From a virus, in the IMG/VR virus record IMGVR_UViG_3300045988_007834: a stretch of 40,630 nucleotides of DNA. One strand, 5' to 3'. The stretch's first letter is position 1. Each line of letters opens with the position of its first letter. Below the pieces are notes generated by a model that saw nothing but the letters and a program-made list of their open reading frames with translations, ran no database searches and had not been told where the DNA came from. Below are positions 4,139 through 18,039 of this stretch, one piece after another. A program made the translations under genes and the position numbers.

Positions 4139-4552
4139 ATGCTGACAGAATTATGCGGACATTTGAAGAATTGGTTTGACCGTGAACGGTATGCCGGAAC
4201 CTTCACCGTAGAAAATGGCAGTATTGCGCTTCCTTTTCTTCGGGAAGGACAGTATTTTAGGATTCTTGGCTCGACGTTCAACGACGGTGTGCATCAATAC
4301 CCAGCCTATGGATTAACGGACGAGGCGTTTGACGGCGCTGTGTGGGCACTTGCAATACCGCCGTCCGTCTTGGCCCTTGACGCAGAAATCGAGGCATGGC
4401 AGGACAAGAACGGCGACACAGCAGCGTCACCGTATAGCTCGGAATCGTTCGGCGGGTATTCTTACTCACGGGCGACGGATGAGAAAACTGGCGGCGCAGT
4501 GACGTGGCAGAGCGCATTCCGTAGCAGATTGAATCAGTGGAGGAAATTATGA
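4139..4552 (+). CDS. Head-tail connector/adaptor protein (putative)
   Basis: Lies directly after the major capsid gene, with RBS AGGAGGGG. The conserved-looking segment is YFRILGSTFNDGVH...SESFGGYSYS. Confidence 0.5.
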   Translation: MLTELCGHLKNWFDRERYAGTFTVENGSIALPFLREGQYFRILGSTFNDGVHQYPAYGLTDEAFDGAVWALAIPPSVLALDAEIEAWQDKNGDTAASPYSSESFGGYSYSRATDEKTGGAVTWQSAFRSRLNQWRKL

Positions 4553-4899
4553 GCCTTTTGAATGACTTTGCCCGCCCTTGCGTGCTCATGGAGAAACACA
4601 GGGAGCCGGACGGCGCAGGCGGGTATATCACTACATGGACGGAGGGCGCGTCGTTTTCGAACTATCAAGCGCTGGACACGTCGATGGAAGCTCGCCGTGC
4701 GGAGAAAGAGGGCGTTACAAGCGTCTACTCGGCGCTCGTTGACAAGGCTGTTCCGATTGAGTACGGCGACTATTTCCGAGACACAGAAACTGGTACGACG
4801 TACAGAGTGACGTCAAACCCGGAGGAAAAGCAAGCGCCACGTTCCGCAAGTTTCACTCTAAAATATTTTACGGCGGAAAGGAAAGAGTTACCGGCATGA
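4549..4899 (+). CDS. Head closure / head-tail adaptor protein (putative)
   Basis: ATG 4549 follows GGAGGAAATT. Size and position fit the connector cluster. Confidence 0.5.
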   Translation: MSLLNDFARPCVLMEKHREPDGAGGYITTWTEGASFSNYQALDTSMEARRAEKEGVTSVYSALVDKAVPIEYGDYFRDTETGTTYRVTSNPEEKQAPRSASFTLKYFTAERKELPA

Positions 4900-5264
4900 C
4901 GAAAGATAAAGCATTACACGCATGGTTCGGCCAGTTTCTCCCCGCCTATCCGGCGTCCTCCGTGCCGGGGGACGCCGTTTTTCCGTGGTTGACCTATGAT
5001 CTTATTCTCGGAGCGTGGGACAGCGGAGAAGCATCAATCACGGTAAACCTCTGGTATTACACCGAGAGCGAAGCAATACCAAATGCAAAGGCACAGGAGA
5101 TCGCGGACGCTATTGGAATGGGAGGCGTTTTTGTTTCTTGCGACGAGGGCGCGATTTGGCTGAAACGCGGCACTCCGTGGTGTCAGGCGATTAAAGACGA
5201 TTCTGAACCAAACGTCAAACGGCGGTATCTCAATATCACCGCCGAATTTATCACACCCAACTGA
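4896..5264 (+). CDS. Neck / tail-completion protein (putative)
   Basis: ATGA start-stop overlap with the upstream gene. It sits between the connector genes and the major tail gene. Confidence 0.4.
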   Translation: MTKDKALHAWFGQFLPAYPASSVPGDAVFPWLTYDLILGAWDSGEASITVNLWYYTESEAIPNAKAQEIADAIGMGGVFVSCDEGAIWLKRGTPWCQAIKDDSEPNVKRRYLNITAEFITPN

Positions 5265-5279
5265 AAGGACTGATTTTAT

Positions 5280-5870
5280 ATGGCAAAGTTTACGAAGATC
5301 CCCGCCGATACGTTCAAACAGCTTCAGATCAATGCGGGCATCATTCTGAAAGATTTCGCCCCGGCTTCTGGCACATTCAAAGCCGCTGACCAGCTCGGTG
5401 CAACGACAGGCGGCGTTACCTTCTCGGCGACACCGACGTTTTCCGACTATGGCGGCGACGTTGACAACTGCCCCAAGAATATGAAGGAACTGAAGCGTCA
5501 GGAATCCATTGAGGCAAAGACCAGCGGCACGTTTGTCACCATGTCCACCGCCGTTGCGAAGTCTCTGATTGCTACGGCGGACATTGACGCACAGGATTCT
5601 ACGAAGATCGTTCCGCGCCTTGATTTGGCCGATTCTGATTTCGATGATCTTTGGATCGTCGGTGACTATTCTGACAAAAACGGCGAGCAGAAGGGCGGCT
5701 TCATCGCAATCCACATGATGAACGCACTCTCTACCGGCGGATTCCAGATGAAAACCAGCGACAAGGCAAAGGGCCAGTTTGCGTTTGAGTACACGGCACA
5801 CTTCGCAATGGCGGAGCAGACCAAAGTTCCGTATGAAATCTACATCAAAGCTGGCGAGGCGGACGCATAA
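5280..5870 (+). CDS. Major tail protein
   Basis: 196-aa protein directly upstream of the G/G-T chaperone pair and the tape measure gene. Confidence 0.6.
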   Translation: MAKFTKIPADTFKQLQINAGIILKDFAPASGTFKAADQLGATTGGVTFSATPTFSDYGGDVDNCPKNMKELKRQESIEAKTSGTFVTMSTAVAKSLIATADIDAQDSTKIVPRLDLADSDFDDLWIVGDYSDKNGEQKGGFIAIHMMNALSTGGFQMKTSDKAKGQFAFEYTAHFAMAEQTKVPYEIYIKAGEADA

Positions 5871-5879
5871 GGAGGAAAC

Positions 5880-6242
5880 ATGAAACTTTCTGAACTGAGT
5901 ACGGATCGCGCGGCGGATGTGCTGTGCGAGATTTCCGTTTTCCTGCTCAATATCACGAGCGACGAGGATGTCATCACATCCCTGAAACTCAACACAAAGG
6001 AAGCGAAAACCGTTGCAGAGAAATATGCAATGGCGGCAAATCGCGTCAGCCAGTGGGTGCCGATGCTTCTGAAAAACCATAGAGAAGACGTGTTCGGCAT
6101 CCTTGCAGTTTTGAACGAAAAAAATGTCGATGACATCCGGAAGCAGAAGATTGTGGAGACGCTGCGGCAAATCAGGGAGATCGCGCAGGATAAGGAACTC
6201 ATTGATTTTTTCTCATCGTGCGTATCGGAGGGGAAAGAGTAA
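5880..6242 (+). CDS. Tail assembly chaperone (G-like)
   Basis: 120-aa acidic protein between the major tail and tape measure genes, with RBS AAGGAGGA. It contains a slippery heptamer near its end. Confidence 0.75.
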   Translation: MKLSELSTDRAADVLCEISVFLLNITSDEDVITSLKLNTKEAKTVAEKYAMAANRVSQWVPMLLKNHREDVFGILAVLNEKNVDDIRKQKIVETLRQIREIAQDKELIDFFSSCVSEGKE

Positions 6243-6517
6243 CACTCTCCCTTCTGGATGCGCCGAAAATTTCAGCGCCCGCACTCATTCGACTCCTGCC
6301 CGTTTTGATTCGGCAGCGGAGGGAAAAGTGGTTGTTTGATGATTATATGTCGCGCTGTGCCAGAGTTTTAACAGAGAACACTGCAAAACTTGTGGGCGGA
6401 CGGTATATGCAGTCGGATCTTGATGAAATATTGCGTCCGAAGAAAGAAGACACGCGCTCTTGCGAGGAAATTACAACTGATATTGTGCGGCGGTGTGGAT
6501 TGGTGGTGGAAGAATGA
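5880..6517 (+). CDS. Tail assembly chaperone G-T fusion made by a -1 programmed frameshift at 6206..6212
   Basis: The -1 frame opens exactly at 6206, after a TGA at 6203. It runs to 6517 and overlaps the tape measure start (ATGA). Confidence 0.7.
6206..6212 (+). promoter_or_regulatory. -1 ribosomal frameshift slippery heptamer T_TTT_TTC
   Basis: Zero-frame codons are TTT TTC, preceded by T. This is the canonical X_XXY_YYZ form, at the conserved G/T position. Confidence 0.7.
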
Positions 6518-7815
6518 ATTTACTAGATATTGTGGTGAAGATCACCGCTGATTCATCCGGCGTGGATGATGGAATGGATTCCGCGAAGAAGAAAGTGTCG
6601 TCGTGGAAGGATAATGTCGGGAAAGCGGCGAAAACTGCGGCGAAGGGATTTGCTGTTGCAGCAGCAGCCACGACAGCGGTCATCGCTGGAATTAGTAAGG
6701 TTATCGACGCGACTGAGGAATATCGTGTTGCACAGGGCAAACTGAACGCCGCCTTTGAAACTGCCGGATATAGTGCTGAGACGGCACAGGCGGCTTACAC
6801 TGGCCTTTACAAAATCCTCGGTGACACGGATACCGCCACAGAAACAGCGCAGCTCATGGCGAAACTGGCACGCAACCAAGAAGATTTTGCAACGTGGACG
6901 AATATCGCCGCTGGTGTAAACGGCACGTTCGGTGATTCGCTGCCTATAAACGGACTTATTGAGGCCGCAAACGAGACGGCAAAGGTTGGACAGGTTACGG
7001 GCGTTCTGGCGGATGCGCTGAACTGGGCCGGTATTTCCGAGGATGATTTTAATGAATCACTTGCGAACTGCTCCGGCGAGGCGGAGCGGAACAGCCTGAT
7101 CATGAATACCCTGTCCGGTACATATTCCGATGCGGCGGATTCTTTCTACAAAAATAACGAGCAGGTAATCAAATCACGCGAAAATCAGGTGAAGCTGCAG
7201 GAATCGACCGCGAAACTCGGCGAGAAGTTCCAAGAACTGAAAAACAATTTCCTCGATAAACTGACCCCAACATTCATAACGGTTATGGATGCAGGCATGC
7301 AGTTTATCGATAAAGTCTCAAAGGCCCTTGACGATTCTGGCCTCATTGAGGCAATCGGATCGATCCTTGAAATTGCAGTTGGATTGCTCGACCCGCTCGC
7401 AGATCTGATCGTGACTTTCCTCCCGGCATTGAAGGTTGCTCTTGATCCTGTCGCAAAAGTGCTTGCGTTAATTGCTGATGCTGCGAACGTCGTAGCCGGT
7501 ATTTTTACATGGGATTTCAACCGGATCGGCACGGCACTCGGTATGAATGTTTCGAAGGGCCAGTTATCTACCTATCAGAAGGTTGTCTATGGAGATACGC
7601 TCAAGAGCACGTCTTATAGTGAATCCGCAGGCGGATGGACTGGAACTGGTGGCTACATTGAGGCTGGAACCGGGAAGTATGTGCCTTACTCGGCGAGCAA
7701 TTCCACGACGAATAATTACAACATCAACATTGATTCGTCAAACGTGCAGCAATTTAACGATGTTGTAAACATCGCGCAAAATCAGCGCAGAACCAGCAGA
7801 ATGGGAGGCGGCTAA
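6514..7815 (+). CDS. Tape measure protein (short, 433 aa)
   Basis: Position after G/G-T. It has an Ala-rich helical N-terminus with a hydrophobic core region, and RBS GGTGGTGGAAGA. Confidence 0.75.
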   Translation: MNLLDIVVKITADSSGVDDGMDSAKKKVSSWKDNVGKAAKTAAKGFAVAAAATTAVIAGISKVIDATEEYRVAQGKLNAAFETAGYSAETAQAAYTGLYKILGDTDTATETAQLMAKLARNQEDFATWTNIAAGVNGTFGDSLPINGLIEAANETAKVGQVTGVLADALNWAGISEDDFNESLANCSGEAERNSLIMNTLSGTYSDAADSFYKNNEQVIKSRENQVKLQESTAKLGEKFQELKNNFLDKLTPTFITVMDAGMQFIDKVSKALDDSGLIEAIGSILEIAVGLLDPLADLIVTFLPALKVALDPVAKVLALIADAANVVAGIFTWDFNRIGTALGMNVSKGQLSTYQKVVYGDTLKSTSYSESAGGWTGTGGYIEAGTGKYVPYSASNSTTNNYNINIDSSNVQQFNDVVNIAQNQRRTSRMGGG

Positions 7816-7867
7816 TATGGGTTATAAACAGGATCTCCGCAGAGTGGTACGGATGGGAGGGGCTTAA

Positions 7868-9829
7868 ATGCCAGAAATTACGCTTACAGGTGCACAGTGT
7901 GCAGGTATTAGCGCATCATTCCCGTCAACAAATTTCAGCACTGAATCTGTGTATGTTGCTGGTGACGCAAACGGACTAAGTGATATTTTATTTTCATTTG
8001 CTGCACCTCCGGAAGCTGCAAGATTTAAGGCCATCGAAAATGTAACCGTATATGTAAATTACCAAGTTTCTTTTTCTACTCTTGCGCAAAGCATTACATG
8101 GTATTATCTTCGAGGCCCATTCAACGAAAAAACAGTAACATACAACAATAAACCGAGCTATGGCGGTACGAAGCTGAGCGTCTATGTAAGTTCTGCCGGG
8201 TATAAGACGGTTGTCTCCTCTGCAACAAGCCTTGCATCCTCCGTGCTGAAGTACGGGATCATGATTGCAACGAACTATTACTGGGCATTTCAGTCAACCA
8301 GAAGCAGTAATCCACCATACGCGACGTTCCGTTATACCGACGAAACCGTAGGGCTTGCAATAAGCAACACATCCCCGTCACGCGGATCTATTGTTGCTGC
8401 AAATTCCAACACCTTCTCTTGGCGTGAATCTGTAAATGGGTACTGCTATGCAGACGTTTCGCGCACGTCTGCAAAATTCCGCTGGCGCAAATCTGCATCC
8501 GACACAGTCAAGGAGATCGACGTGCCTGGCACGGCCACCTCCATCACCATCCCGGCGAATACTTTTTCCGGCGACAGCATCCAGTGGCAGATCAGCGTGA
8601 CCGCGAACAGCGGCGTCACCACGACCTCCGATTGGATGACACTCTCGCTGACCGACGTGGAATCCACAGCCGTTGCGGTTGCGCCTGACCGGGCCGTGCT
8701 CGACGGAGCATCTGATAACGTGTTCAAGTGGGAACACATTATTTCGACCGGCACGGCCCAAACGAAGGCCGAATTGCAGCAGAGCACGGACGGCAGCACA
8801 TGGACGGCGCTGGCAACCGTCACCGGTGCAGCCAACACATGGACGGCTCCTGCCGGAACGTTTACCTCCGGCACAAAATACTGGCGCGTGCGGACGTACA
8901 ATTCCAAGGGTGCTGCGGGCGCATGGAGCGCTGCCACACAGTTTATTGTGCTGGCCGCCCCCGCAACACCGCCCGTGTCTATCGTGTCCACAGAGCCGCG
9001 CCCGGAGATCCGCTGGCAGTCGGATGAACAGCAAGCCTATCAAGTCGAGATCGATGGCGTCTATGCCTCCGGCACGCGCTTTGGAACCGGAAAGGCGTGG
9101 AAAGCCCCATTTTATCTGGCTGACGGCAGCTACACCGTTCGCGTCCGTGTACAAAACGAATACGGCTTCTGGTCGCCATGGGGCACGGCGGCGCTCCCGG
9201 TCACAAACGTACCGGGCGGCGCGATTACGCTGACGGCAAGTACCGAAAACGCAGTAACGCTCGCATGGGTGGATTCCGACAACTACGATTTTTACATTGT
9301 ATACCGGGACGGGACACCGATTGCAAAGGCGGAAGATCCCGGATATGTGGATAACATGGCGATTGGCGCCTGCACATATCAGGTGCGCGGCTGCTATTCC
9401 GACAACGATTATTACGGCGTTTCTGCCGAAGTCTCTGTCTCGGTCACGCCGGAATACAACGTCTTGTATGATATGGACGCCGGAGAATGGCTGACCATGA
9501 AGCACAGCGGCCTGACCAATCAGCCGGTTACTAGAAGTATTAGCCGCTCGATTGCAGAGGTAAGACTTTCCGGGTACACATATCCCGTTGCGGAGCGCAG
9601 TAAAGCGAAAACTGCGACCTACGACGGGAATGTCGTATTCTTAAACAGAGACAGCGCCGAGAAGTTCGAGGGCATGATCGGACATCTGGTTTGCTTGAAA
9701 CTGCATCCGTCGGGAGGCTGCATCGGGTATCTGAATGAGGTTTCGGGAGAGGTCAACCAATACAAGAGTGTGTATTCGTTCATGGTGACACAAATCGAGT
9801 ACGAGGAGGAGATTGACATTGATTCGTGA
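7868..9829 (+). CDS. Dit-position tail/baseplate protein with an FN3/Ig-like repeat array
   Basis: 653 aa, directly after the tape measure gene. It has several ~90-aa beta-rich repeats with the W...W/Y pattern (FKWEH..., YWRVRTYNSKGAAGAWS, IRWQSD...VRVQNEYGFWSPW). Confidence 0.5.
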   Translation: MPEITLTGAQCAGISASFPSTNFSTESVYVAGDANGLSDILFSFAAPPEAARFKAIENVTVYVNYQVSFSTLAQSITWYYLRGPFNEKTVTYNNKPSYGGTKLSVYVSSAGYKTVVSSATSLASSVLKYGIMIATNYYWAFQSTRSSNPPYATFRYTDETVGLAISNTSPSRGSIVAANSNTFSWRESVNGYCYADVSRTSAKFRWRKSASDTVKEIDVPGTATSITIPANTFSGDSIQWQISVTANSGVTTTSDWMTLSLTDVESTAVAVAPDRAVLDGASDNVFKWEHIISTGTAQTKAELQQSTDGSTWTALATVTGAANTWTAPAGTFTSGTKYWRVRTYNSKGAAGAWSAATQFIVLAAPATPPVSIVSTEPRPEIRWQSDEQQAYQVEIDGVYASGTRFGTGKAWKAPFYLADGSYTVRVRVQNEYGFWSPWGTAALPVTNVPGGAITLTASTENAVTLAWVDSDNYDFYIVYRDGTPIAKAEDPGYVDNMAIGACTYQVRGCYSDNDYYGVSAEVSVSVTPEYNVLYDMDAGEWLTMKHSGLTNQPVTRSISRSIAEVRLSGYTYPVAERSKAKTATYDGNVVFLNRDSAEKFEGMIGHLVCLKLHPSGGCIGYLNEVSGEVNQYKSVYSFMVTQIEYEEEIDIDS

Positions 9830-11118: not shown

Positions 11119-11415
11119 ATGGATGATGGGATTCAGGCAAAGATCGTGGAGATCGACCAGCGCTCGAAGAGCAACACGCACCGCATCAACGACTTAGAGG
11201 AGGACAACCGGGCACTGCACACGCTGGCGACGTCGGTCGAAGTCCTCGCCACGAAGCAGGAGGCAATCGAGAGCAACGTGCAGGAGATCAAGACGGACGT
11301 CAAGGCACTGAAAGCTGTGCCGGGGAGTAAGTGGGAAGCGCTGGTCAAGGCGGTCGTGACGGCCATTGTGGGGGCGCTGGTCGGCTTCGCGCTGGCTCAT
11401 GCGGGGATCGTGTGA
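11119..11415 (+). CDS. xhlA: XhlA-family lysis-associated membrane protein
   Basis: N-terminal coiled coil (INDLEEDNRALHTLATSVEVLATKQEAIESNVQEIK) and a single C-terminal TM (VVTAIVGALVGFALAHAGIV), as in PBSX XhlA. It sits upstream of the holin and amidase genes. Confidence 0.6.
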   Translation: MDDGIQAKIVEIDQRSKSNTHRINDLEEDNRALHTLATSVEVLATKQEAIESNVQEIKTDVKALKAVPGSKWEALVKAVVTAIVGALVGFALAHAGIV

Positions 11416-11672
11416 TGGAGACTTCGAAGAAGCTGCTGATTGGCAGCGCGGCGGCAAGCGTCGCTTGCATTATCCTGAATGTGCTCGGCGTGCTGAGTGT
11501 GGAGGTCACCTTGGCAGTCATCGGATTTGCGACGGCTATTGGGATGTTTTACCTCTGGAAGGCCAAGAACGAGAACAGAAGCAAGTATGCGATTAAGTAC
11601 ATCAAGAGTTTGCCGGAAACGTATACGGCAGAGGAAAAGGCACGTTTTTTGGAGATCGTGCTAAAGGACTGA
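11415..11672 (+). CDS. Small two-TM membrane protein in the lysis cassette
   Basis: TGATG overlap with the upstream gene. Two hydrophobic segments: LLIGSAAASVACIILNVLGVL and VTLAVIGFATAIGMFYLW. Confidence 0.5.
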   Translation: METSKKLLIGSAAASVACIILNVLGVLSVEVTLAVIGFATAIGMFYLWKAKNENRSKYAIKYIKSLPETYTAEEKARFLEIVLKD

Positions 11673-11687
11673 AAGGAACAAAACGAT

Positions 11688-11873
11688 ATGAGAGAACTGA
11701 ACGCCTGCCCGTTATGTGGGTATTTCCCAGTGCTGAAACAAGTCGGAGACGATAAAAATCTCTTGGTGTACCAATGCGCACATTGTGGCTACATTGCCGC
11801 GAAAAACCATGAGGCAAAATACACAAAATCCGGCGCCATGAAAGTTTGGAACAAAGGGACGGAAAAAGCATAA
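11688..11873 (+). CDS. Lar-family (restriction alleviation)-like zinc-ribbon protein
   Basis: CPLCG ... YQCAHCG ... KVWNKG matches the CxxC-N-CxxC-WN pattern of Pfam Lar_restr_allev-type proteins. Confidence 0.5.
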   Translation: MRELNACPLCGYFPVLKQVGDDKNLLVYQCAHCGYIAAKNHEAKYTKSGAMKVWNKGTEKA

Positions 11874-11890
11874 TGAAGGGAGTACATAAC

Positions 11891-12112
11891 ATGGACAAAA
11901 TTATGAAACGGCTTTCGAATCTGCTGAGCGTGAAGTCGCTGGTGACGCTGCTGCTGACGGTGGTGTTTACGGTGCTGGCGCTGCGGGGTGATATCACAGG
12001 GAAAGACTTCTTGACGATCTTCCTGATGGTCATCACGTTCTATTTCGGCACGCAGTCGCAGAAGGCACAGGACGCGATGGATGCGAAGGGTGATAGTGAT
12101 GGTACCAATTAA
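11891..12112 (+). CDS. Holin (two TM)
   Basis: ATG 11891 follows AAGGGAG. Two TM segments (LVTLLLTVVFTVLAL, FLTIFLMVITFYF) with a charged C-tail. Its end overlaps the amidase start. Confidence 0.55.
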   Translation: MDKIMKRLSNLLSVKSLVTLLLTVVFTVLALRGDITGKDFLTIFLMVITFYFGTQSQKAQDAMDAKGDSDGTN

Positions 12113-12764
12113 AACGATGCTGGCCCATCGGGCCAACTACGGCACGAAACGCGGCGGGGACGTTGAGTGGATTGTCATGCACTACACGGCCAACGACGGG
12201 GATTCCGACACCAGCAACGGCAGGTACTTCCAGCAGCCTTTGAATCCGGTCGCAAGCGCGCACTTTTTCGTGGATGATGATTCCATCACGATCTCCGTGC
12301 CGGAGGACTATGTAGCCTTCCACTGCGGCGCGTATCACTACACGCACCCATTCTGCCGGAACTACAACTCTATTGGCATTGAGATGTGCGACGCGAAGCG
12401 GGATGGACGCATAATGGCAACGGCCAAGACGATTGACAATGCGGCCGATCTGGCCGCGATGCTATGCGAGAAGTACAACATCCCGGTCGATCATATCATC
12501 CGGCACTATGATGTGACGGGCAAGCTCTGCCCGAAGTATTGGGTGGACGATCCGGAGGGTATCAAGAAATTCCGTGAGATGGTAAAGGAGAGGATTGAAA
12601 TGGTAAGCAAGTGCAAGATGATTGTTGACGGAAAACCCGTCGAGGTTGAACGTATCCTGAAAAACGGAACCAACTATGTGAAAATCCGCGACGTGGCCGG
12701 GGCGCTCGGTCTTTCCGTTTCCAATCAGGGGAACGTTCCGGTTTTGATGACCAAAAAGGGGTGA
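12099..12764 (+). CDS. Endolysin: N-acetylmuramoyl-L-alanine amidase (Amidase_2/PGRP) with a C-terminal wall-binding-like domain
   Basis: IVMHYTAN, SAHFFVDD, IGIEMC and RHYDVTGKLCPKYW are amidase_2 signatures. The alternative start is 12081. Confidence 0.85.
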   Translation: MVPIKTMLAHRANYGTKRGGDVEWIVMHYTANDGDSDTSNGRYFQQPLNPVASAHFFVDDDSITISVPEDYVAFHCGAYHYTHPFCRNYNSIGIEMCDAKRDGRIMATAKTIDNAADLAAMLCEKYNIPVDHIIRHYDVTGKLCPKYWVDDPEGIKKFREMVKERIEMVSKCKMIVDGKPVEVERILKNGTNYVKIRDVAGALGLSVSNQGNVPVLMTKKG

Positions 12765-12768
12765 TTGG

Positions 12769-13017
12769 ATGTCGCCGCAGGCGCGGTATAATCTACCGCC
12801 TGAATTATCCGGCCTGATGCGTGGAGAAATGGAGACCGTTATTTCCCAAGCAAACCTCGGGCAGGAAAATGAGCGCATTGCACAGCTCTATTACGTCGAT
12901 AAGCGCCCTCAGATTGACGTTGCATCGGAGTTGTATCTCGGGCGAGCCACCGTGCAGCGGCGGCTCCCCGGAATTCTCGACCGAATGCGAAAGACATCTA
13001 GCCGACTATATAGTTAA
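12769..13017 (+). CDS. Sigma-70 region-4-like HTH protein (putative transcription regulator)
   Basis: 82 aa. IAQLYYVDKRPQIDVASELYLGRATVQRRL resembles a region 4.2 HTH. It is the last gene before a strong terminator. Confidence 0.5.
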   Translation: MSPQARYNLPPELSGLMRGEMETVISQANLGQENERIAQLYYVDKRPQIDVASELYLGRATVQRRLPGILDRMRKTSSRLYS

Positions 13018-13070
13018 ACTCGAAACGGGCGAAAATGATGCACAATCGCGGCACATAAACCCGAAAAACA

Positions 13071-13119
13071 ACCCATACTGGACACGTTGAGAGGTGTCCG
13101 GTATGGGTTTTTCTTTTTA
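13071..13119 (+). terminator. Strong rho-independent terminator (15-bp stem with one G-T pair, then T-run)
   Basis: ACCCATACTGGACAC / loop GTTGAGAG / GTGTCCGGTATGGGT, followed by TTTTCTTTTT. The 3' arm contains the start codon of the next ORF. Confidence 0.75.
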
Positions 13120-13513
13120 CAATCCAAATCCCGCGCGGCGTCAGGTTGGGGATTGCCCTGTTCGGGCGATTTGCAAGGCGACCGGTAAATCGTGGGATGA
13201 GGTATATGTCGCGCTTGCGCTTCATGGGTTTGAGGTTGGCGATATGCCCTCCGCAAACGCTGTTTGGGGAGCGTACCTGAACCAGCTTGGCTATGCCCGG
13301 CATGGCGTACCAAGCTCCAACCCGGACACATACACAGTTGCGGAGTTCGCGCGTGACCATCCGATCGGTACATACATTCTTGCGCTTGCAACCCATGTGG
13401 TCTGCGTCAGGGATGGAGATTGGTTTGACACATGGAACTCCGGAAGCCAAACACCGCTTTATTTTTGGGAAAGGAACGAATCTGAATGTATGGACAGTAC
13501 CAACCGCCGATGA
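13103..13513 (+). CDS. Hypothetical protein with papain-like Cys...His...Asp order (putative cysteine peptidase/amidase fold)
   Basis: N-terminal GDCPVRAICKATG, later LATHVVCVRDG and DTWNS. Start is ATG 13103 (or GTG 13094), inside the terminator arm. Confidence 0.4.
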   Translation: MGFSFYNPNPARRQVGDCPVRAICKATGKSWDEVYVALALHGFEVGDMPSANAVWGAYLNQLGYARHGVPSSNPDTYTVAEFARDHPIGTYILALATHVVCVRDGDWFDTWNSGSQTPLYFWERNESECMDSTNRR

Positions 13514-13944
13514 GCTACCAACCATTTTATCAGCCGCCGATGCAAGACCAGCTCATGCAGCTTCGCCAACAGTATCAACCGCAGCAGCCGCCACAGCCTA
13601 TGGCGCAAATGCCGCAGCCTGCCCAGAGCATGATTTGGGTACAGGGTGACGCGGGTGCAAAGAGCTACCTCGTCGCGGCTGGGAACACGGTTCCACTGTG
13701 GGATAGCGAGAACCCGTGCATTTATATCAAGAGCGTGGACGCGTCCGGCGTTCCGTCCATGCGGGTTCTGGATTACACGGAGCGCACGGGCGCGAGAACA
13801 CCAGCACAGCCGATCATACCGGCCAGCGGGGAATTTGTCACCCGAAGGGAGTTTGAAGCGATGGAAGCGCGTGTGAACGCGCTGGCGGCTGCTGGCGCGG
13901 AGAACAAGAAGGAGGAATACCACAATGCCGAACCCGCTGTTTAA
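13486..13944 (+). CDS. Hypothetical protein with a Gln/Pro/Tyr/Met-rich N-terminus and a beta-rich C-domain
   Basis: MYGQYQPPMSYQPFYQPPMQDQLMQLRQQYQPQQPPQPMAQMPQPAQ, then IWVQGDAGAKSYLV...IYIKSVDASG. The gene series is compact and overlapping. Confidence 0.5.
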   Translation: MYGQYQPPMSYQPFYQPPMQDQLMQLRQQYQPQQPPQPMAQMPQPAQSMIWVQGDAGAKSYLVAAGNTVPLWDSENPCIYIKSVDASGVPSMRVLDYTERTGARTPAQPIIPASGEFVTRREFEAMEARVNALAAAGAENKKEEYHNAEPAV

Positions 13945-14152
13945 CGCGCTTGGCGGCGGCAGAGCGCCGCAAATGCCCGGCCAGATGGGGCAGTTTCAGA
14001 GAATGATGCAGCAATTCCAGCAATTCAAGGCGAACTTTAATGGCGACCCGAAAGCCGAGGTTGAAAAAATGATGCAATCCGGCAAGCTCACGCAGCAGCA
14101 GCTAAACCAGCTGCAGGCCGTTGCGCGGCAGTTTCAGGGGCTTATGCAATAA
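13925..14152 (+). CDS. Small Gln/Met-rich hypothetical protein
   Basis: 75 aa (QMPGQMGQFQRMMQQFQQFK...QQQLNQLQAVARQFQ). It overlaps the upstream stop region. Confidence 0.45.
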   Translation: MPNPLFNALGGGRAPQMPGQMGQFQRMMQQFQQFKANFNGDPKAEVEKMMQSGKLTQQQLNQLQAVARQFQGLMQ

Positions 14153-14203
14153 TCAATCCGTGGCCACGGTTGATAATAAATTTTCTTCAAGGAGTACGAC
14201 AAA

Positions 14204-14965
14204 ATGAGCCTTACCGATGGTACGACTATGACTATGCCGGTAGCACCTACTGGCATGGGCGGCAACGGCTGGGGCGGCTTCGGCGGCGATGGCGGATGGT
14301 GGTTTATCATCCTGTTCCTCGCGATCTTCTGCGGCTGGGGCGGCAATGGCTGGGGCAACAACAATGGCGGCGGTGCGACGGATGGATACATCCTTGCATC
14401 CGATTTCGCCAACATTGAGCGCAAGCTTGACGGCGTCAATAACGGCCTGTGCGACAGCTTCTATGCGATGAACACCAGCGTCCTGAACGGATTTGCGGGC
14501 GTCACGCAGGCGGTCAACAGCGGATTCCAGACGGCGGAGCTATCCCGCGCGAACCAGCAAGCCGCGCTGATGCAGCAGCTTTTCCAGATGCAGATGCAGT
14601 CTCAGAACTGCTGCTGCGAGAACCGGGAAGCAATCGCACAGGTGCGGTACGACATGGCTTCGCAGGCGTGCGACACGCGTAACACCGTACAGAACGCAAC
14701 GCGGGACATCATCGACAACCAGAACAGCAACAGCCGAGCCATTCTTGACTTCCTGACGCAGAGCAAGATGCGCGATCTCGAAAACGAGAATCAGGGGTTG
14801 CGGCTGGCGGCATCTCAGTCTGCGCAGAGTGAAGCACTCAAGGCATACATGAGCGGCCAGTTCGCCTACTACAACCCGCGCCCGGTTCCGTCGTTTGCGG
14901 TTCCCGCACCGTATCAGTTCGCCGGGTGTAATGGTTCGCAGTATGTCTGCGGTGCCTGCGCCTAA
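14204..14965 (+). CDS. Membrane-anchored Gly/Trp-rich, Gln/Asn-rich, Cys-motif protein (hypothetical)
   Basis: RBS AAGGAG. The N-terminus GMGGNGWGGFGGDGGWWFIILFLAIFCGWGGNGWGNNNGGG flanks one TM. It has a central CCCENR motif and the C-terminus CNGSQYVCGACA. Confidence 0.6.
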   Translation: MSLTDGTTMTMPVAPTGMGGNGWGGFGGDGGWWFIILFLAIFCGWGGNGWGNNNGGGATDGYILASDFANIERKLDGVNNGLCDSFYAMNTSVLNGFAGVTQAVNSGFQTAELSRANQQAALMQQLFQMQMQSQNCCCENREAIAQVRYDMASQACDTRNTVQNATRDIIDNQNSNSRAILDFLTQSKMRDLENENQGLRLAASQSAQSEALKAYMSGQFAYYNPRPVPSFAVPAPYQFAGCNGSQYVCGACA

Positions 14966-15033
14966 CAAATCCACAAATTGAGCTTTTTCGTGACCTCACG
15001 AAAATGGTCGGCTCCGTGTCGATACTCACAGCA

Positions 15034-15064
15034 GCGGCGGGGCAATCGCTCCGCCGCATTTTAT
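15034..15064 (+). terminator. Rho-independent terminator
   Basis: GCGGCGG / loop / CCGCCGC, followed by ATTTTAT. Confidence 0.55.
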
Positions 15065-15089
15065 ATCTATCAAAGAGAGGGTTGATTTT

Positions 15090-15512
15090 ATGGCCGAATA
15101 TACCAATTCCAACATCGTGACCGTAGCGGCTGGCCAGAATGTGCCGTTGACGGAAACGCCCGCCGCGAGCGGTGGGTGTATCGTGCATCGCGCCGGAGCG
15201 GGCATCGTAACGCTTCGCGGTCTCACGAATCAGTGCAAGGCGCGGTTCCGCGCGGCCTTTGGCGCGAACATTGCCATTCCGACCGGTGGCACGGTGGAAG
15301 CAATCTCTGCCGCGCTGACGATCAATGGTGAACCGATTACCAGCGCAACCGCCGTTGTCACGCCTGCTGCAGTCGGGAACTATTTCAACATTTTTGTTAC
15401 GGCATTTGTAGAGGTGCCGCGCGGCTGCTGCCTTACGGTTGCCGCAAAAAATATCAGCACGCAGGCGATCAGTTTTGCGAATAGCAATATGATCGTCGAG
15501 CGCGTGGCGTGA
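15090..15512 (+). CDS. BclA C-terminal-domain-like (TNF/C1q-like jelly-roll) protein without a collagen-like region
   Basis: 140 aa, beta-rich and Ala/Thr/Gly/Val-rich. It ends SNMIVERVA, compared with the BclA C-terminus ...SIIIEKVA as recalled from memory. Confidence 0.45.
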   Translation: MAEYTNSNIVTVAAGQNVPLTETPAASGGCIVHRAGAGIVTLRGLTNQCKARFRAAFGANIAIPTGGTVEAISAALTINGEPITSATAVVTPAAVGNYFNIFVTAFVEVPRGCCLTVAAKNISTQAISFANSNMIVERVA

Positions 15513-15525
15513 AAGGAGCATGAAC

Positions 15526-15903
15526 ATGAGTAAGAGAGCTATGGAGGACTTGCGGGCGACGCTCTGCGGAGAGCTTGAGGAAATCGCAAGGAAGCCGGAG
15601 CTGGGCGCTGGCGATCTCGAGATCGTCCACAAGTTGACCGACACGATCAAAAACATCGACAAAATTGAAATGCTCGACGAATCCGGTTATAGCCGGGACG
15701 CCGATTGGGATGCAAACATCCGAGGGACGTATAATCGCGGAAGCTCCTACCGTGGACGCCGCCGGGATTCTCTGGGGCGTTATAGTCGTGCCGACGCCCG
15801 CGAGCGAATGCATGAGCAGCTCGAGGACATGATGCGCGACGCGGACAGCGACGCAACCCGCGACGCTATTCGTCACTGCATGGAGCAGATCGACCGGGCA
15901 TAG
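15526..15903 (+). CDS. Charged Arg/Asp-rich hypothetical protein
   Basis: ATG 15526 lies 7 nt after AAAGGAG. It contains RRRDSLGRYSR and an acidic helical tail. Confidence 0.5.
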   Translation: MSKRAMEDLRATLCGELEEIARKPELGAGDLEIVHKLTDTIKNIDKIEMLDESGYSRDADWDANIRGTYNRGSSYRGRRRDSLGRYSRADARERMHEQLEDMMRDADSDATRDAIRHCMEQIDRA

Positions 15904-15916
15904 GGGGGGCGCTCCC

Positions 15917-16243
15917 ATGCTGGATGCGCTTGAAATCCGCAAGGAAATCGCGCGGCTGGAATATGAGGAATCCAGTTATCCGAACTATGCCAAGCTCGCA
16001 AATCTTTACACCATTCAAGACCGCATGGGGCACAAGGCGGAGCCGCCGGTTGAACGCCGATACTCCGCTGCGCCGCCCGCAGCCGAAACGATCAACGAGT
16101 ATGGGGACAGCATTTTTTTACGAAGTATTGCAGGAAAAGACCCGGCGCAAATCTGGCCGATCATTGATGAGCTTATGGAAACCCTGTCGCTTGTCAACCA
16201 CCGTGCATACGATTCAGTGCTTCGGAAGGTGCGGAACGTCTGA
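15917..16243 (+). CDS. Hypothetical protein
   Basis: 108-aa ORF tightly following the previous gene. It is the last gene before attP. Confidence 0.45.
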   Translation: MLDALEIRKEIARLEYEESSYPNYAKLANLYTIQDRMGHKAEPPVERRYSAAPPAAETINEYGDSIFLRSIAGKDPAQIWPIIDELMETLSLVNHRAYDSVLRKVRNV

Positions 16244-16248
16244 AATGT

Positions 16249-16265
16249 GTTACTTACCAAGTAAC
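16249..16265 (+). terminator. Terminator-like hairpin after the cargo operon
   Basis: GTTACTT-ACC-AAGTAAC, with a T-run about 12 nt downstream. Weak. Confidence 0.35.
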
Positions 16266-16357
16266 TTATAGACTGCAATTTTTTAGTTTTTGGCTGTCCG
16301 TAGATGTATTTTTCATATTTCGACATTTAGCGCCATTCCGAACAAATAAATAGAGAA

Positions 16358-16397
16358 AGTACCCGAAAGCAGCGCAAACACGCTATTTTCGGGTACT
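16358..16397 (-). terminator. Hairpin terminator downstream (minus strand) of the tRNA 3' fragment
   Basis: 11-bp stem AGTACCCGAAA / TTTCGGGTACT, immediately 3' of the CCA end on the minus strand. Confidence 0.6.
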
Positions 16398-16398
16398 T

Positions 16399-16460
16399 TG
16401 GCGCGGAAGGAGAGATTCGAACTCTCGCAGGCTTTTTACACCTCTACTCCCTTAGCAGGG
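16399..16460 (-). other. attP core: 3' portion of a tRNA-Ser(GCU) gene (anticodon loop to CCA)
   Basis: The minus strand reads CCCTGCTAAGGGAG-TAGAGGTGTAAAAAGCCTGC-GAGAG-TTCGAAT-CTCTC-CTTCCGC-G-CCA. The parts are the anticodon loop CTGCTAA, a long variable arm, a canonical T-arm, the acceptor 3' strand and discriminator G. The 5' anticodon-stem partner is absent. The integrase gene is adjacent. Confidence 0.7.
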
Positions 16461-16504
16461 TATTTGGAACCTTTGAAAATACTACACATTTTCGATTTTG
16501 TTAC

Positions 16505-17629
16505 TTACGGAGTTACTTTCGGGTCTGGCGCTGATTGAACATCAGAAGATGGAATTTGGTTGACCGCATCGACCATGCCTCGCATATTTGGATGAATATA
16601 CTTCTGCGTCGTGGTGATTTTGCTGTGCCGCATGACCTCTTTGATTGTAAATGGGTCAATGTTTTTCATCGCTAATGCGGTGGCAGTTGTGTGCCTGCAC
16701 GCGTATGGCGTGAGACGCCGGACACCAGCCAGCGCAAGGCATTCATAATATCGCGCATAGAAATTATCTTTGTTGATGCAGCAAACATTCCCGATACGGG
16801 AATTACTTTCCTCGCACAATTCCTTAAGGACGGGCGCGAGGAAATCTGGGAACACCATAGGTGTATCTTTCCGCTTCTGCGTTTTAATGCCGCCGCCGAT
16901 GATCTCATTTTTTTCGAAGTCGAGCATTTTCTTTTTGAGCTTTTGAACCTCTCCCGGCATCATGCCGGTGTAGATCATCGTGAGGATGAAACCGATAAAA
17001 TGATCTTGTGGGTACGATTTCCATAGTTTCAGGACTTCATCGTCCGTGAACGGCTCCGGCGTTTTCTCCTCGAGCTTCGGCAGTTTGATGTATTTTGAGA
17101 GATTCACGGTTGTCTGCTTCTCGGCAATGGCGAGATTGTAGCAATGGGACAGAACCGTTTTCATATCGCGGCGTGTATAGTATGTGCTGGCGTTGGTGTC
17201 CACCACGTCCTGCAATTGCTTAATCGTCAGGGTGTCTATCTCGCAATCGGCTATATCCTTCAACCGCTCAAACGCCTTGTCTGCGGCCGTCATTCGGTCG
17301 TTGGACAGCGATTTGTAGTCTCCGCGTAAATAGGTTTTATAATATTCGCGCACCGTCGGTGATTGCTTTTCCTTCCCCGGCGGATTTGCAGCGTATTGTA
17401 GGGCGGCTCGCTTTGTGGCGAATCCGCCCTTTGTCTTTACCTTCTGGTGCAGTTTTTCGTTTTCGTCAAGATAGCAGGCCACCGTCCATCGCGCAGTCCA
17501 TGTTTTCCCGCGCTGATAGGCGTACCCCTGACCATTTCCGCGCGATTTCCCACGGTGCTCCTGCATCTGTTTCTTTCCACACCACGGGCAATAGGACGCG
17601 CCCTCCGGTATCTCCTTTTTGCATCTCAT
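16505..17629 (-). CDS. int: Tyrosine integrase with an N-terminal zinc-ribbon
   Basis: YACRHTTAT and VMRHSKITTTQKYIH supply the catalytic R..HxxR..Y set. The N-terminus is MRCKKEIPEGASYCPWCG. Start is taken at Met41 of the long ORF, just after the upstream stop at 17641. Confidence 0.9.
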   Translation of the reverse strand: MRCKKEIPEGASYCPWCGKKQMQEHRGKSRGNGQGYAYQRGKTWTARWTVACYLDENEKLHQKVKTKGGFATKRAALQYAANPPGKEKQSPTVREYYKTYLRGDYKSLSNDRMTAADKAFERLKDIADCEIDTLTIKQLQDVVDTNASTYYTRRDMKTVLSHCYNLAIAEKQTTVNLSKYIKLPKLEEKTPEPFTDDEVLKLWKSYPQDHFIGFILTMIYTGMMPGEVQKLKKKMLDFEKNEIIGGGIKTQKRKDTPMVFPDFLAPVLKELCEESNSRIGNVCCINKDNFYARYYECLALAGVRRLTPYACRHTTATALAMKNIDPFTIKEVMRHSKITTTQKYIHPNMRGMVDAVNQIPSSDVQSAPDPKVTP

Positions 17630-17640
17630 ACAATCTATGA

Positions 17641-18039
17641 CTACCACCCCCGAAACCATCCGACTGTCGGGATAAGTAAATCCACGGCCAGCACGATTAT
17701 AATGAATACAATCAGCGACAGACAGATTATGAACATCCGCCGTATCCACCGATCTTTCTGTTCGATTGCAATTTTCAAATCCTCGATGCGTTCCAAGTAA
17801 ACGTGTTCCAGCGACGTCACGTCATTTGGTGAAATGTCGTACTGGATGGTTTCCTCCTCAATCCCCAATCCGTCACAAATGGCGATGATCGTTGACATTG
17901 ACGCATTTCTCCCTCTGGTCGCCAGCACCCTCGACACGGTAGCTTCGGAAATATCTGCAAGCCGCGCAACATCTCGATTTGTTAGATTTCTATCATCAAT
18001 CGTGCGTATACATCGGTCAATCAGCTTCTCAAAATCCAT
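17641..18039 (-). CDS. Membrane-anchored XRE-family HTH protein
   Basis: N-terminal HTH (LTNRDVARLADISEATVSRVL) and C-terminal TM (MFIICLSLIVFIIIVLAVDLLI). Confidence 0.7.
   Translation of the reverse strand: MDFEKLIDRCIRTIDDRNLTNRDVARLADISEATVSRVLATRGRNASMSTIIAICDGLGIEEETIQYDISPNDVTSLEHVYLERIEDLKIAIEQKDRWIRRMFIICLSLIVFIIIVLAVDLLIPTVGWFRGW

Follow-up and report, generated by a model that had tools for sequence, protein, structure and literature searches.

A seven-gene accessory cassette with a structured RNA and a putative regulator in siphophages of gut Clostridia

The IMG/VR virus record IMGVR_UViG_3300045988_007834 is a DNA stretch of 40,630 nucleotides, called here the window, which looks like a complete temperate siphophage genome of approximately 40.6 kb. 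The head and tail genes were followed by an XhlA-like gene, holins and an Amidase_2 endolysin (11119-12764). After the endolysin came, in this order, a small helix-turn-helix (HTH) gene, a hairpin terminator, seven genes numbered g1 to g7, the attachment site attP and the integrase. The seven genes are plus-strand open reading frames (ORFs) within positions 13103-16243, each with a ribosome-binding site, and are close-set or overlapping. They constitute one horizontally mobile accessory unit of gut Clostridia siphophages, as detailed below. The features of the region were located as follows:

12769..13017, plus strand: HTH regulator gene, 82 amino acids (aa), starting 4 nt past the endolysin stop codon
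13040..13055, plus strand: GCACA repeats, two units, 11 bp apart
13070..13119, plus strand: upstream terminator hairpin, 16-bp stem and T-run
13074..13079, plus strand: -10-like hexamer CATACT, read directly from the sequence
13103..13513, plus strand: g1, 136 aa, minimal papain-like Cys-His-Asp protein (by predicted fold)
13486..13944, plus strand: g2, Gln/Pro/Tyr/Met-rich N-terminus, core of about 55 aa, helix
13925..14152, plus strand: g3, 75 aa, Gln/Met-rich
14204..14965, plus strand: g4, Gly/Trp-rich hydrophobic segment, CCC, Cys-rich C-terminus
14975..15068, plus strand: structured RNA, directly 3' of g4, defined by a covariance model
15034..15057, plus strand: internal terminator-like hairpin, GC-rich with a T-rich tail, part of the structured RNA
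15090..15512, plus strand: g5, 140 aa, TNF/C1q-like jelly roll (by predicted fold)
15520..15903, plus strand: g6, helix, YSRDG-like repeats, helix
15917..16243, plus strand: g7, 108 aa, charged, helical
16399..16510, minus strand: attP, degenerate tRNA-like stretch, core at 16399-16424
16505..17749, minus strand: tyrosine integrase, following attP

A first-pass annotation of the window, made from the letters and the ORFs, had already singled out seven co-oriented genes between the lysis cassette and attP-integrase and had assigned no recognisable virion, lysis or replication role to their products. Both statements were confirmed. None of the seven proteins (0/7) matched Pfam, NCBIfam or PADLOC, and in a PHROG scan only g1 to g6 found matches, all to families without function annotation. 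PDB-sequence profile searches with g1, g2, g4, g5, g6 and g7 gave nothing significant, and a literature search for a description of the seven-gene cassette found nothing relevant. The island had also been called terminator-bounded, which was half right. The upstream terminator, placed by the annotation at 13071-13119, is real, whereas the scan for a closing plus-strand terminator downstream of g7 found no convincing one (folding z = -0.2), and a terminator-like hairpin was located instead inside the cassette, between g4 and g5.

Whether the seven genes co-occur as a block elsewhere had been raised in the annotation, and in related loci they do. A scan of one genome per species gave 33 loci, and a scan of IMG/VR gave at least 571 confirmed cases among the 599 matching stretches listed, 80 of which were taken for analysis; the cassette is thus present in more than 570 IMG/VR contigs. 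Homologues of g5 and g4 each formed approximately 7,000-8,000 protein clusters at 90% identity (7022 for g5, at least 7991 for g4), mostly on contigs of about 40 kb. Linkage was counted over 115 loci carrying g5, the most conserved gene of the cassette. Homologues of g4 and g6 were present in 111 of these loci each, those of g2 in 106, g1 in 104, g3 in 98 and g7 in 85. The window's lysin and integrase had homologues in 21/115 and 16/115 loci, respectively. The gene order was constant across the loci. In the most divergent cassettes (L030-L034; L numbers designate related loci), g4 and g5 were adjacent or overlapping, and these two genes are among the most constant members.

The cassette was found in at least three genomic places, and its flanking modules are not homologous among them. 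In the first, it lies after the lysis genes and before attP-integrase or attR, as in the window, Dulem virus 33 and Vescimonas fastidiosa. In the second, it lies between a portal/Phage_min_cap2 gene and a scaffold gene in Lachnospiraceae prophages such as L023. In the third, it lies between an exonuclease/polymerase-like gene and an HNH-terminase (L032). The linkage of the genes, their constant order and their changing surroundings show that g1 to g7 are a single unit that moves horizontally among these phages. Several side observations were made on these loci. Unrelated genes were inserted between cassette members without breaking the cassette: an endonuclease gene between g3 and g4 in Dulem virus 33 (L001:8944-9495, minus strand), a C5 cytosine methylase gene between g4 and g5 in the Lachnospiraceae prophage L023 (8825-9940, plus strand) and a gene of no assigned kind between g5 and g6 in Butyrivibrio virus Ceridwen (L035:9518-10312, plus strand). 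In the distant locus L032, from a phage of a "Bacillales" metagenome-assembled genome (MAG), the cassette is preceded by a 920-aa protein (4511-7273, plus strand) that matched PHROG 4291 ("RNA-dependent RNA polymerase") with an E-value reported as 0.

The attP proposed in the annotation was borne out by the integrated relatives. A tRNA-like match of 27.9 bits covers 16402-16510 on the minus strand, and the 26-nt core at 16399-16424 is identical to the 3' end of the full tRNA-Ser(GCT) gene flanking the integrated relative L018. Both L018 (9798-10013) and L005 (10979-11185) end at a full tRNA-Ser(GCT), beside a tRNA-Ser(GCT)/tRNA-Ser(TGA) pair. More generally the integrated relatives adjoin tRNA-Ser or tRNA-Val genes, the latter being used by the Vescimonas prophage. 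A tRNA-Ser(TGA)/tRNA-Ser(GCT) pair was also seen inside the prophage L023, between the cassette and the scaffold gene.

The hosts of the carrier phages are Clostridia, in agreement with the Clostridia-type host suggested by the annotation, and MAGs of Oscillospiraceae and Lachnospiraceae dominate. Complete cassettes were found in two cultured systems. In Butyrivibrio virus Ceridwen a complete cassette (g1 to g5, the inserted gene, g6 and g7) follows the endolysin, a small HTH gene and a terminator. This phage has been observed in lytic growth only, is devoid of integrase and excisionase, and is regarded by its authors as virulent (PMC7372960); members of Butyrivibrio are described as not forming spores (PMC6249431). 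The prophage of Vescimonas fastidiosa MM35 carries an HTH gene, a terminator, repeats, an extended -10 box, a small additional ORF (g0, see below) and g1 to g7, next to tRNA-Val. As for Vescimonas, an absence of spore formation is reported both in the description of its type species and from genome-based predictions (PMC11334427). Searches by tblastn of 50,697 phage records found no match to g5 (E <= 1e-5) or to g4 (E <= 1e-3) in named phages of Bacillus, Clostridium, Clostridioides or Paenibacillus.

In every lineage examined, the last gene of the holin/endolysin cluster, shortly before the cassette, encoded an HTH protein of 54-89 aa. The window's copy, described as sigma region-4-like in the annotation, matched weakly: Pfam Sigma70_r4 at E = 0.035 (14.1 bits for a cut-off of 24.1), NCBIfam sigma70-ECF at E = 4.4e-4 and the PHROG category "transcriptional regulator" at E = 5e-4. 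The description fits better its positional equivalents in relatives. Forms of 54 and 64 aa passed the Pfam GerE/LuxR threshold, and the 54-aa form reached 39.5 bits versus 23.5 for GerE (E = 4e-10) and 29.2 versus 25.7 for Sigma70_r4_2.

In the window as in its relatives, the HTH gene is followed by the terminator. The hairpin of the window contains 16 pairs (13070-13109) with a T-run extending to 13119. It folds at -30.4 kcal/mol (z = -6.35; 0/200 shuffles fold as well), and L011, L017 and L085 have retained it by way of G-C to G-U to A-U changes. It would end the transcripts coming from the lysis genes and from the regulator gene. The alignment of homologues favours the ATG at 13103 over the in-frame GTG at 13094 as the start of g1. 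The Shine-Dalgarno (SD) sequence and the ATG of g1 sit in the loop and the 3' arm of this hairpin, a point overlooked in the annotation.

Direct repeats with a period of 11 bp, in three to four units, follow the terminator in relatives, for instance ACTGAGGCACA four times in L073. The units look like -35 hexamers (GGCACA, TTGGCG, TTGACC, CTGACA) and their sequence varies with the regulator variant. Chains of at least three units were present in 34 of 92 distinct upstream regions, compared to 45 of 500 control windows, and the period was nearly always 11 bp. The repeats stop 17-22 nt ahead of a -10-like box, which is often TGn-extended. The window itself has GCACA at 13040 and 13051, the sole exact GCACA-N6-GCACA in the 40.6 kb. 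The hexamer CATACT begins 18 nt past the last repeat, within the 5' arm of the terminator hairpin. The lineage of the window has conserved this hexamer, and TGn-extended TACAAT or TATAAT occupies the same place in other lineages. We presume that the HTH protein is the regulator of the cassette and that the GCACA repeats are its binding sites, and in the window the promoter appears to be nested within the terminator.

Two other interpretations of this region were discarded. A role of the HTH protein as a general late-gene activator was not retained, as no further repeat site of this type turned up in the window, nor one ahead of the terminase region. A sporulation-type (sigma E/K) or sigma-54 promoter, judged by eye, was not retained either: no CATACA-T or AC-N17-CATA pattern is common to the lineages, and the TGGCAC-like units are accounted for by the 11-bp repeats. 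The stretch between the HTH gene and the cassette promoter was also seen to be an insertion hot spot, with 1.6-2 kb of extra cargo in L085 (6326-7983) and L018 (4206-6221); in both loci the unit made of repeats, -10 box and hairpin stays joined to g1 despite the inserted cargo.

The second non-coding feature of the cassette is an element of approximately 95 nt that starts right after g4. It consists of a hairpin 1, a conserved linker (A/C/U)UG(G/U/A)U, a hairpin 2, an A-rich linker and the terminator-like hairpin. More than 12 different stem sequences were found for hairpin 1, all of them able to pair. A covariance model built from 12 sequences had exactly one plus-strand hit in 88 of 89 sources, each time immediately before g5. 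In all, some 90 related loci have the element, among them L019 (4858-4953) and L023 (8634-8729). An earlier search had found it in divergent Lachnospiraceae prophages too, still after g4; in L023 the methylase gene separates it from g5. In locus L015 the sole copy lies upstream of g1 instead. Over 60 distinct sequences, 98.1% of the cells were standard pairs, versus 83.1% in shuffles and 38-64% with slid partners. Changes on both sides were seen in 15 of 23 pairs, and none of 500 shuffles reached the observed values. The folding z was -4.86. A short closing helix, with weaker support, would form a three-way junction. Rfam 15 gave no match to positions 12700-16600, either at the gathering thresholds or at E <= 5. 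The element between g4 and g5 is a new structured RNA, previously undescribed.

The tail of the internal hairpin is interrupted (UGUAUUUU) in many relatives, so that this terminator may be only partly efficient. The form and place of the whole element suggest a partial terminator or attenuator that would adjust g5-g7 relative to g1-g4; a 3'-untranslated region (UTR) RNA is another possibility. Three other candidates were rejected. For a sigma-A promoter within the element, the would-be -35 falls in the variable arm of hairpin 1. The Lachnospiraceae variants have lost the antiterminator pairing considered for the hairpin-2 loop and the terminator's 5' arm, and a leader peptide is broken in its reading frame by indels between loci. 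In some relatives an ORF of about 70 aa (MATxKELKEKFIDYL...), preceded by a GAAAGGA ribosome-binding site, was seen between the RNA element and g5 (L006:9797-10000, L008, L017, L018 and L020); it does not exist in the window.

Among the proteins, g5 gave the clearest structural result. Its AlphaFold2 model (mean predicted local distance difference test score, pLDDT, 74.6) is a jelly roll of the TNF/C1q type. When compared to the PDB with Foldseek, it matched the F-BclA C-domain 9h38 (E = 1.2e-5, template modelling (TM) score 0.72), BxpB 8d02 (E = 5e-5) and further ExsF 9h3d, EDA-A1, 4-1BBL, the phi812 spike knob and a cyanophage tail-fibre domain. The exosporium proteins scored no better than TNF ligands or phage fibre knobs. 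In the BFVD library of viral structures the closest models were small uncharacterised phage ORFs, some of them labelled "BclA protein", followed by C1q-domain proteins, collagen-like proteins, tail fibres (including that of a Klebsiella phage) and fibritin. No Pfam, NCBIfam or BclA_C match was obtained for g5, and the PDB-sequence profile search found nothing related. On the strength of the model we assign to g5 a TNF/C1q-like jelly-roll fold. The BclA-C-like jelly roll announced by the annotation therefore holds at the level of the fold (9h38, 8d02, 9h3d) and not at that of the family.

The case of g1 is similar. Residues Cys18, His98 and Asp109 were invariant in alignments of 20 and of 41 sequences. 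In the AlphaFold2 model (pLDDT 88.6) a helix begins at residue 18, with Cys18 at its N-terminus, and His98 and Asp109 are on adjacent strands (99-103 and 106-109). Foldseek gave weak matches only, the better ones all to papain folds: Josephin-2, the foot-and-mouth disease virus leader protease (FMDV Lpro) and viral deubiquitinases (DUBs). The best, Josephin-2, had E = 0.06, a probability of 0.84 and a TM score of 0.45. No Pfam or PDB-sequence match was found for g1, the Pfam scan covering every member of its alignment, and its PHROG match was phrog_3754. The modelled topology and the three conserved residues bear out the Cys-His-Asp papain-like protein of the annotation, so that g1 is, by predicted fold and not by family, a minimal papain-like protein. 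A transglutaminase-type reaction instead of a peptidase activity is possible for g1.

Homologues of g1 also exist without the cassette. They were found in the early regions of Tsamsa-like virulent Bacillus phages, such as Izhevsk (L036:5971-6366), where the gene adjoins an Ocr-like anti-restriction gene and a Ser/Thr kinase gene, in the Geobacillus phage GBK2 (L037:5983-6372), before RecT, and in Lak megaphages. In many relatives of the cassette, although not in the window, the additional ORF g0 of approximately 45 aa overlaps the start of g1 (L118:6860-7000, L003:2077-2205, L001:7741-7890 and, in L035, just upstream of 7074), with the consensus ..ERLIACG(F/Y)TEQMA.DI..Y..D...L..YV. A UBA-like fold suspected by eye for g0 was dropped, as Pfam UBA was matched by one of ten sequences, at best with E = 0.14.

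In the alignment of g4, a conserved N-terminal MSL..G..TMPVAP is followed by a hydrophobic run rich in Gly and Trp, by an Asn/Gln-rich helical region whose repeats vary in number and which carries an invariant CCC, and then by a PVPAY motif and a Pro-rich and Cys-rich tail. In the window, 12% of the g4 residues are G, the CCC spans residues 136-138, and the C-terminal Cys are residues 242, 249 and 252. The annotation was correct as to the Gly/Trp-rich composition, the CCC and the C-terminal Cys. For its membrane protein there is a borderline hydropathy, the Kyte-Doolittle maximum over 19 residues being 1.54. The likeness to YjcZ-type sporulation peptides was not supported: g4 matched no YjcZ model of NCBIfam or Pfam at E <= 1, and a scan of 17 homologues gave no match either. 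No significant Pfam or PDB match was found for g4, a profile match to influenza HA2 (E = 0.12) was taken as compositional, and the protein belongs with phrog_16490.

The compositions given by the annotation for g2, g3, g6 and g7 were correct on residue counts. The coat-like character read into the low-complexity segments found no GerQ or coat-family match. The N-terminus of g2 contains 16 Q, 11 P, 6 M and 5 Y within 48 residues, and is followed by a conserved beta-rich core of approximately 55 aa and a C-terminal helix. This protein matched phrog_21718 and, including a Pfam scan of all its alignment members, had no significant Pfam or PDB match; a PDB-sequence profile match to VP5 (E = 0.08) was taken as compositional. 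The small protein g3 is 23% Q and 11% M (phrog_22984). In g6, which is highly charged (phrog_28802), Tyr/Ser/Arg/Gly-rich repeats of the YSRDG type lie between two helices, and g7 is helical and highly charged, with no match in the Pfam, PHROG or PDB-sequence profile searches.

We propose a model in which the cassette is a late-activated accessory operon whose RNA element grades the expression of g5 to g7, and whose products form a membrane-associated complex, with g4 as the stalk and g5 as the knob, acting at or after lysis. The scheme is put forward tentatively, as possible rather than probable. The small sigma-region-4/LuxR-type HTH protein, whose gene closes the holin-endolysin cluster, is likely to appear late during lytic growth; we infer late lytic activation from the joining of its gene to the lysis genes. 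It would bind the -35-like repeats phased by 11 bp and turn on a promoter having a -10 box alone. A transcript starting a few bases past CATACT would lack the 5' arm of the hairpin, and consequently would escape the terminator and leave the ribosome-binding site and start codon of g1 unpaired; the conservation of the hairpin by compensating base changes in relatives supports this scheme. The genes g1 to g4 would be transcribed first, the junction-plus-terminator RNA then setting or regulating the read-through into g5 to g7. All the cassette proteins are devoid of signal peptides, and would therefore be made in the cytoplasm. They may assemble, a step in which we have low confidence, into a fibre-like or layer-like complex associated with the membrane. 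In this complex, g4 would supply a hydrophobic anchor, a helical Asn/Gln-rich stalk and Cys clusters, and g5 a trimeric TNF/C1q-type knob of the kind found at the tips of viral fibres and of the exosporium nap. The Gln/Pro/Tyr-rich g2, together with g3 and the Tyr/Ser/Arg-rich g6, would be matrix or adaptor proteins, and the papain-like g1 a processing or cross-linking enzyme. Its site of action would be the envelope of the lysing cell, cell debris or released particles.

Several points weigh against this model. The -10 boxes are weak matches, and the proposed cassette promoter was not among the hits of a promoter scan over this region. The HTH protein could instead act as a repressor; lysogens would then express the cassette, and it would be shut off during lytic growth. 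Membrane anchoring of g4 is uncertain, given its short hydrophobic segment. A TNF-like fold by itself defines no function, and neither a g4-g5 fusion nor a model of a g4-g5 complex was obtained. Lastly, the solo homologues of g1 in early regions, beside the Ocr-like gene and the kinase, indicate that g1 may have an independent, possibly anti-defence, role.

As to the timing assumed in the model, the annotation had placed the genes in a moron, or lysogenic-conversion, location. An accessory gene set, patchily distributed, does lie at a module boundary of a temperate phage. An upstream terminator, repeats and a -10 box are present and would suggest a promoter of its own; no plus-strand terminator was found after g7. 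The lysogenic-conversion label is doubtful: Ceridwen, which lacks integrase and excisionase, is known from lytic growth only, and Lachnospiraceae prophages have the cassette between the portal/minor-capsid genes and the scaffold gene. Indirect signs, namely the regulator gene in the lysis cluster and the existence of an integrase-less carrier phage, point away from expression from the repressed prophage.

The g4 stalk and the g5 knob might alternatively be carried by the progeny capsid or tail, as an accessory fibre or decoration binding host or gut glycans. In many viruses, C1q/TNF-like domains form the tips of tail fibres, of whiskers and of collagen-like fibres, and the matches of g5 to Klebsiella phage tail fibres, fibritin and C1q-domain proteins in BFVD, and to the phi812 spike knob and the cyanophage domain in the PDB, are in line with such a use. 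So are the co-orientation of the cassette with the late genes, its place within the head-gene region in Lachnospiraceae prophages and its probably late expression. However, the cassette moves among phages with non-homologous neighbours, to which the docking partner would need to be common. Its own putative regulator and promoter and its terminators are unlike the equipment of core structural genes, and a Gly-rich hydrophobic N-terminus is unusual in a fibre. In addition, the cassette of L023 is parted from the scaffold gene by minus-strand genes and tRNAs, which designates the region as an accessory island. A virion fibre appears unlikely.

A bolder extension of the late-operon model, which we regard as doubtful to about the same degree, would be that this very common "very late" operon, with a sigma-region-4-like activator of its own, a promoter nested in a terminator and a junction-type RNA attenuator, builds an exosporium-like assembly outside sporulation, from a trimeric BxpB/BclA-type knob, a Cys-rich anchored stalk, Gln/Pro/Tyr-rich matrix proteins and a papain-like maturation enzyme. 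If true, exosporium-like coats or fibres on released virions or on the lysing cell could aid persistence or adhesion in the gut.

The properties of g1 lead to another explanation, a host-takeover or counter-defence module. Here g1 would be a small Cys protease or DUB-like enzyme stripping host modifications or cleaving a defence protein, and the other products would be helpers or inhibitors. Its best structural match is Josephin-2 bound to ubiquitin, before viral DUBs and Lpro, all of them weak, and the solo homologues lie beside the Ocr-like gene and the kinase, before RecT in GBK2 and in Lak megaphages. The accessory islands that house the cassette also gather methylases and endonucleases. 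On the other hand, no PADLOC or other defence-related match was obtained, the UBA-like idea for g0 failed, and low-complexity Gln/Pro/Tyr/Gly-rich proteins and a TNF-like knob are untypical of known anti-defence proteins. The strict linkage of seven genes argues for a single joint product. We consider this explanation quite unlikely.

The annotation had itself favoured a spore-surface or envelope-related role. Stated in full, the spore version supposes a lysogenic-conversion cassette expressed from the prophage during sporulation and decorating or remodelling the coat or exosporium, with g5 as a BclA/BxpB-like nap or anchor protein, g4 as a YjcZ-like or Cys-rich basal-layer protein, g2 and g3 as coat-like proteins and g1 as a coat protease or transglutaminase. 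Oscillospiraceae and Lachnospiraceae are families that include spore formers, and many of the hosts belong to them. The F-BclA C-terminal domain, BxpB and ExsF are among the best PDB fold matches of g5, the regulator is of the LuxR/GerE HTH type, and the place beside attR is the usual one for morons. The cassette proteins are Cys-rich and Gln-rich, and lack signal peptides, as do coat proteins made in the mother cell. Nevertheless, the TNF/C1q fold is equally common in viral fibres, no BclA_C, YjcZ, GerQ or coat-family match was found, and the regulator gene is attached to lysis genes. Ceridwen has no integrase and is known from lytic growth only, and among the 50,697 phage records no named phage of a classical spore former had g5 or g4. 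Above all, complete cassettes are carried by phages of Butyrivibrio fibrisolvens and Vescimonas fastidiosa, members of genera described as non-spore-forming, which makes a spore-coating role unlikely; a non-sporulating host lineage is also what the annotation had named as fatal to its hypothesis. The spore-coat reading, tempting as it was, is very improbable and was set aside, and an envelope-related role is possible.

A final-step lysis or membrane-active module, in which g4 would disrupt the remaining envelope layer like an i-spanin or a class-I fusion protein, is equally improbable: the usual place directly after holin, endolysin and regulator, the architecture of g4 (N-terminal hydrophobic segment, coiled coil, intermolecular disulfides), its non-significant HA2 profile match and the weak matches of three g2 homologues to the Pfam "membrane fusogenic activity" family (E ~0.02) speak for it, but there were no significant matches, the hosts have a single membrane, the cassette is away from the lysis genes in L023 and L032, and seven genes far exceed the needs of known spanin systems. 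The probability that is left goes to some other function.

The cassette is among the most widespread unannotated gene sets of gut Clostridia phages, and finding its function would annotate a sizeable part of the "dark matter" of the human gut virome. The limits of the unit are now defined, a probable regulator and operator are proposed, and a structured RNA absent from Rfam is described. Two carriers are culturable, Ceridwen on B. fibrisolvens DSM 3071 and the prophage of V. fastidiosa MM35.

Individually, the parts of the cassette recall known systems. Papain-fold peptidases and DUBs of the clan CA type (Josephin, FMDV Lpro, viral tegument DUBs) have the same order and placement of Cys, His and Asp as g1, which differs from them by its size of 136 aa, its invariant N-terminal NPNP motif and the non-significance of its matches. 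The BclA C-domain, BxpB and ExsFA (ExsF) of the exosporium of the Bacillus cereus group share with g5 the fold and the size (TM 0.69-0.73) and the lack of a signal peptide. Compared with BclA and BxpB, g5 shows 10-15% sequence identity, no sequence-family match and no collagen-like stalk, and it is encoded by phages whose hosts belong to non-spore-forming genera; the BclA/BxpB fold also occurs in tail fibres and in eukaryotic TNF ligands. By analogy with BclA and BxpB, g5 is probably a trimer. The Bacillus BxpB/ExsF binds the N-terminal peptide of the stalk protein, and g4 has a conserved N-terminal motif, a parallel which is an analogy only.

The closest known RNAs are riboswitch-like or attenuator leaders and processive-antitermination RNAs such as HK022 put and Bacillus EAR. 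The element between g4 and g5 resembles these in being a compact junction of covarying helices directly before an intrinsic terminator, inside an operon. It differs from them by the lack of an Rfam match and of a conserved antiterminator pairing, and by its location in the 3' UTR of g4 instead of a 5' leader. For the putative promoter, the closest parallels are activator-dependent late promoters of Firmicutes phages, for example in the lactococcal phage TP901-1, in which Alt binds direct repeats upstream of P_late, a promoter without a -35 box. The three to four helically phased direct repeats, the -10 box without a properly spaced -35 and the small phage-encoded DNA-binding protein, presumed to be an activator in the cassette, are common to both. 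Unlike in those systems, the putative regulator is an HTH protein of 54-89 aa of the sigma-region-4/LuxR type, the repeat units resemble -35 hexamers, an accessory cassette would be controlled and not structural genes, and the -10 box of the window is nested in a terminator.

At the level of the whole unit, morons are known at the junction between lysis genes and attR in temperate phages of Firmicutes, such as the sak-scn-chp-sea immune-evasion cluster and lukSF-PV of Staphylococcus aureus. Like these, the cassette lies after holin and endolysin and before attP or attR, is accessory and mobile and has promoter-like and terminator signals. Unlike these, it is made of seven linked genes without secretion signals, with a putative dedicated regulator attached to the lysis genes, and other sites where it was found are head-gene regions, the upstream side of terminase and an integrase-less phage. 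Phage accessory cassettes are thus a known kind, of which the present one is unusual by its size, the strict linkage of its seven genes, its abundance, a putative regulator of its own, the apparent nesting of promoter and terminator and the RNA motif.

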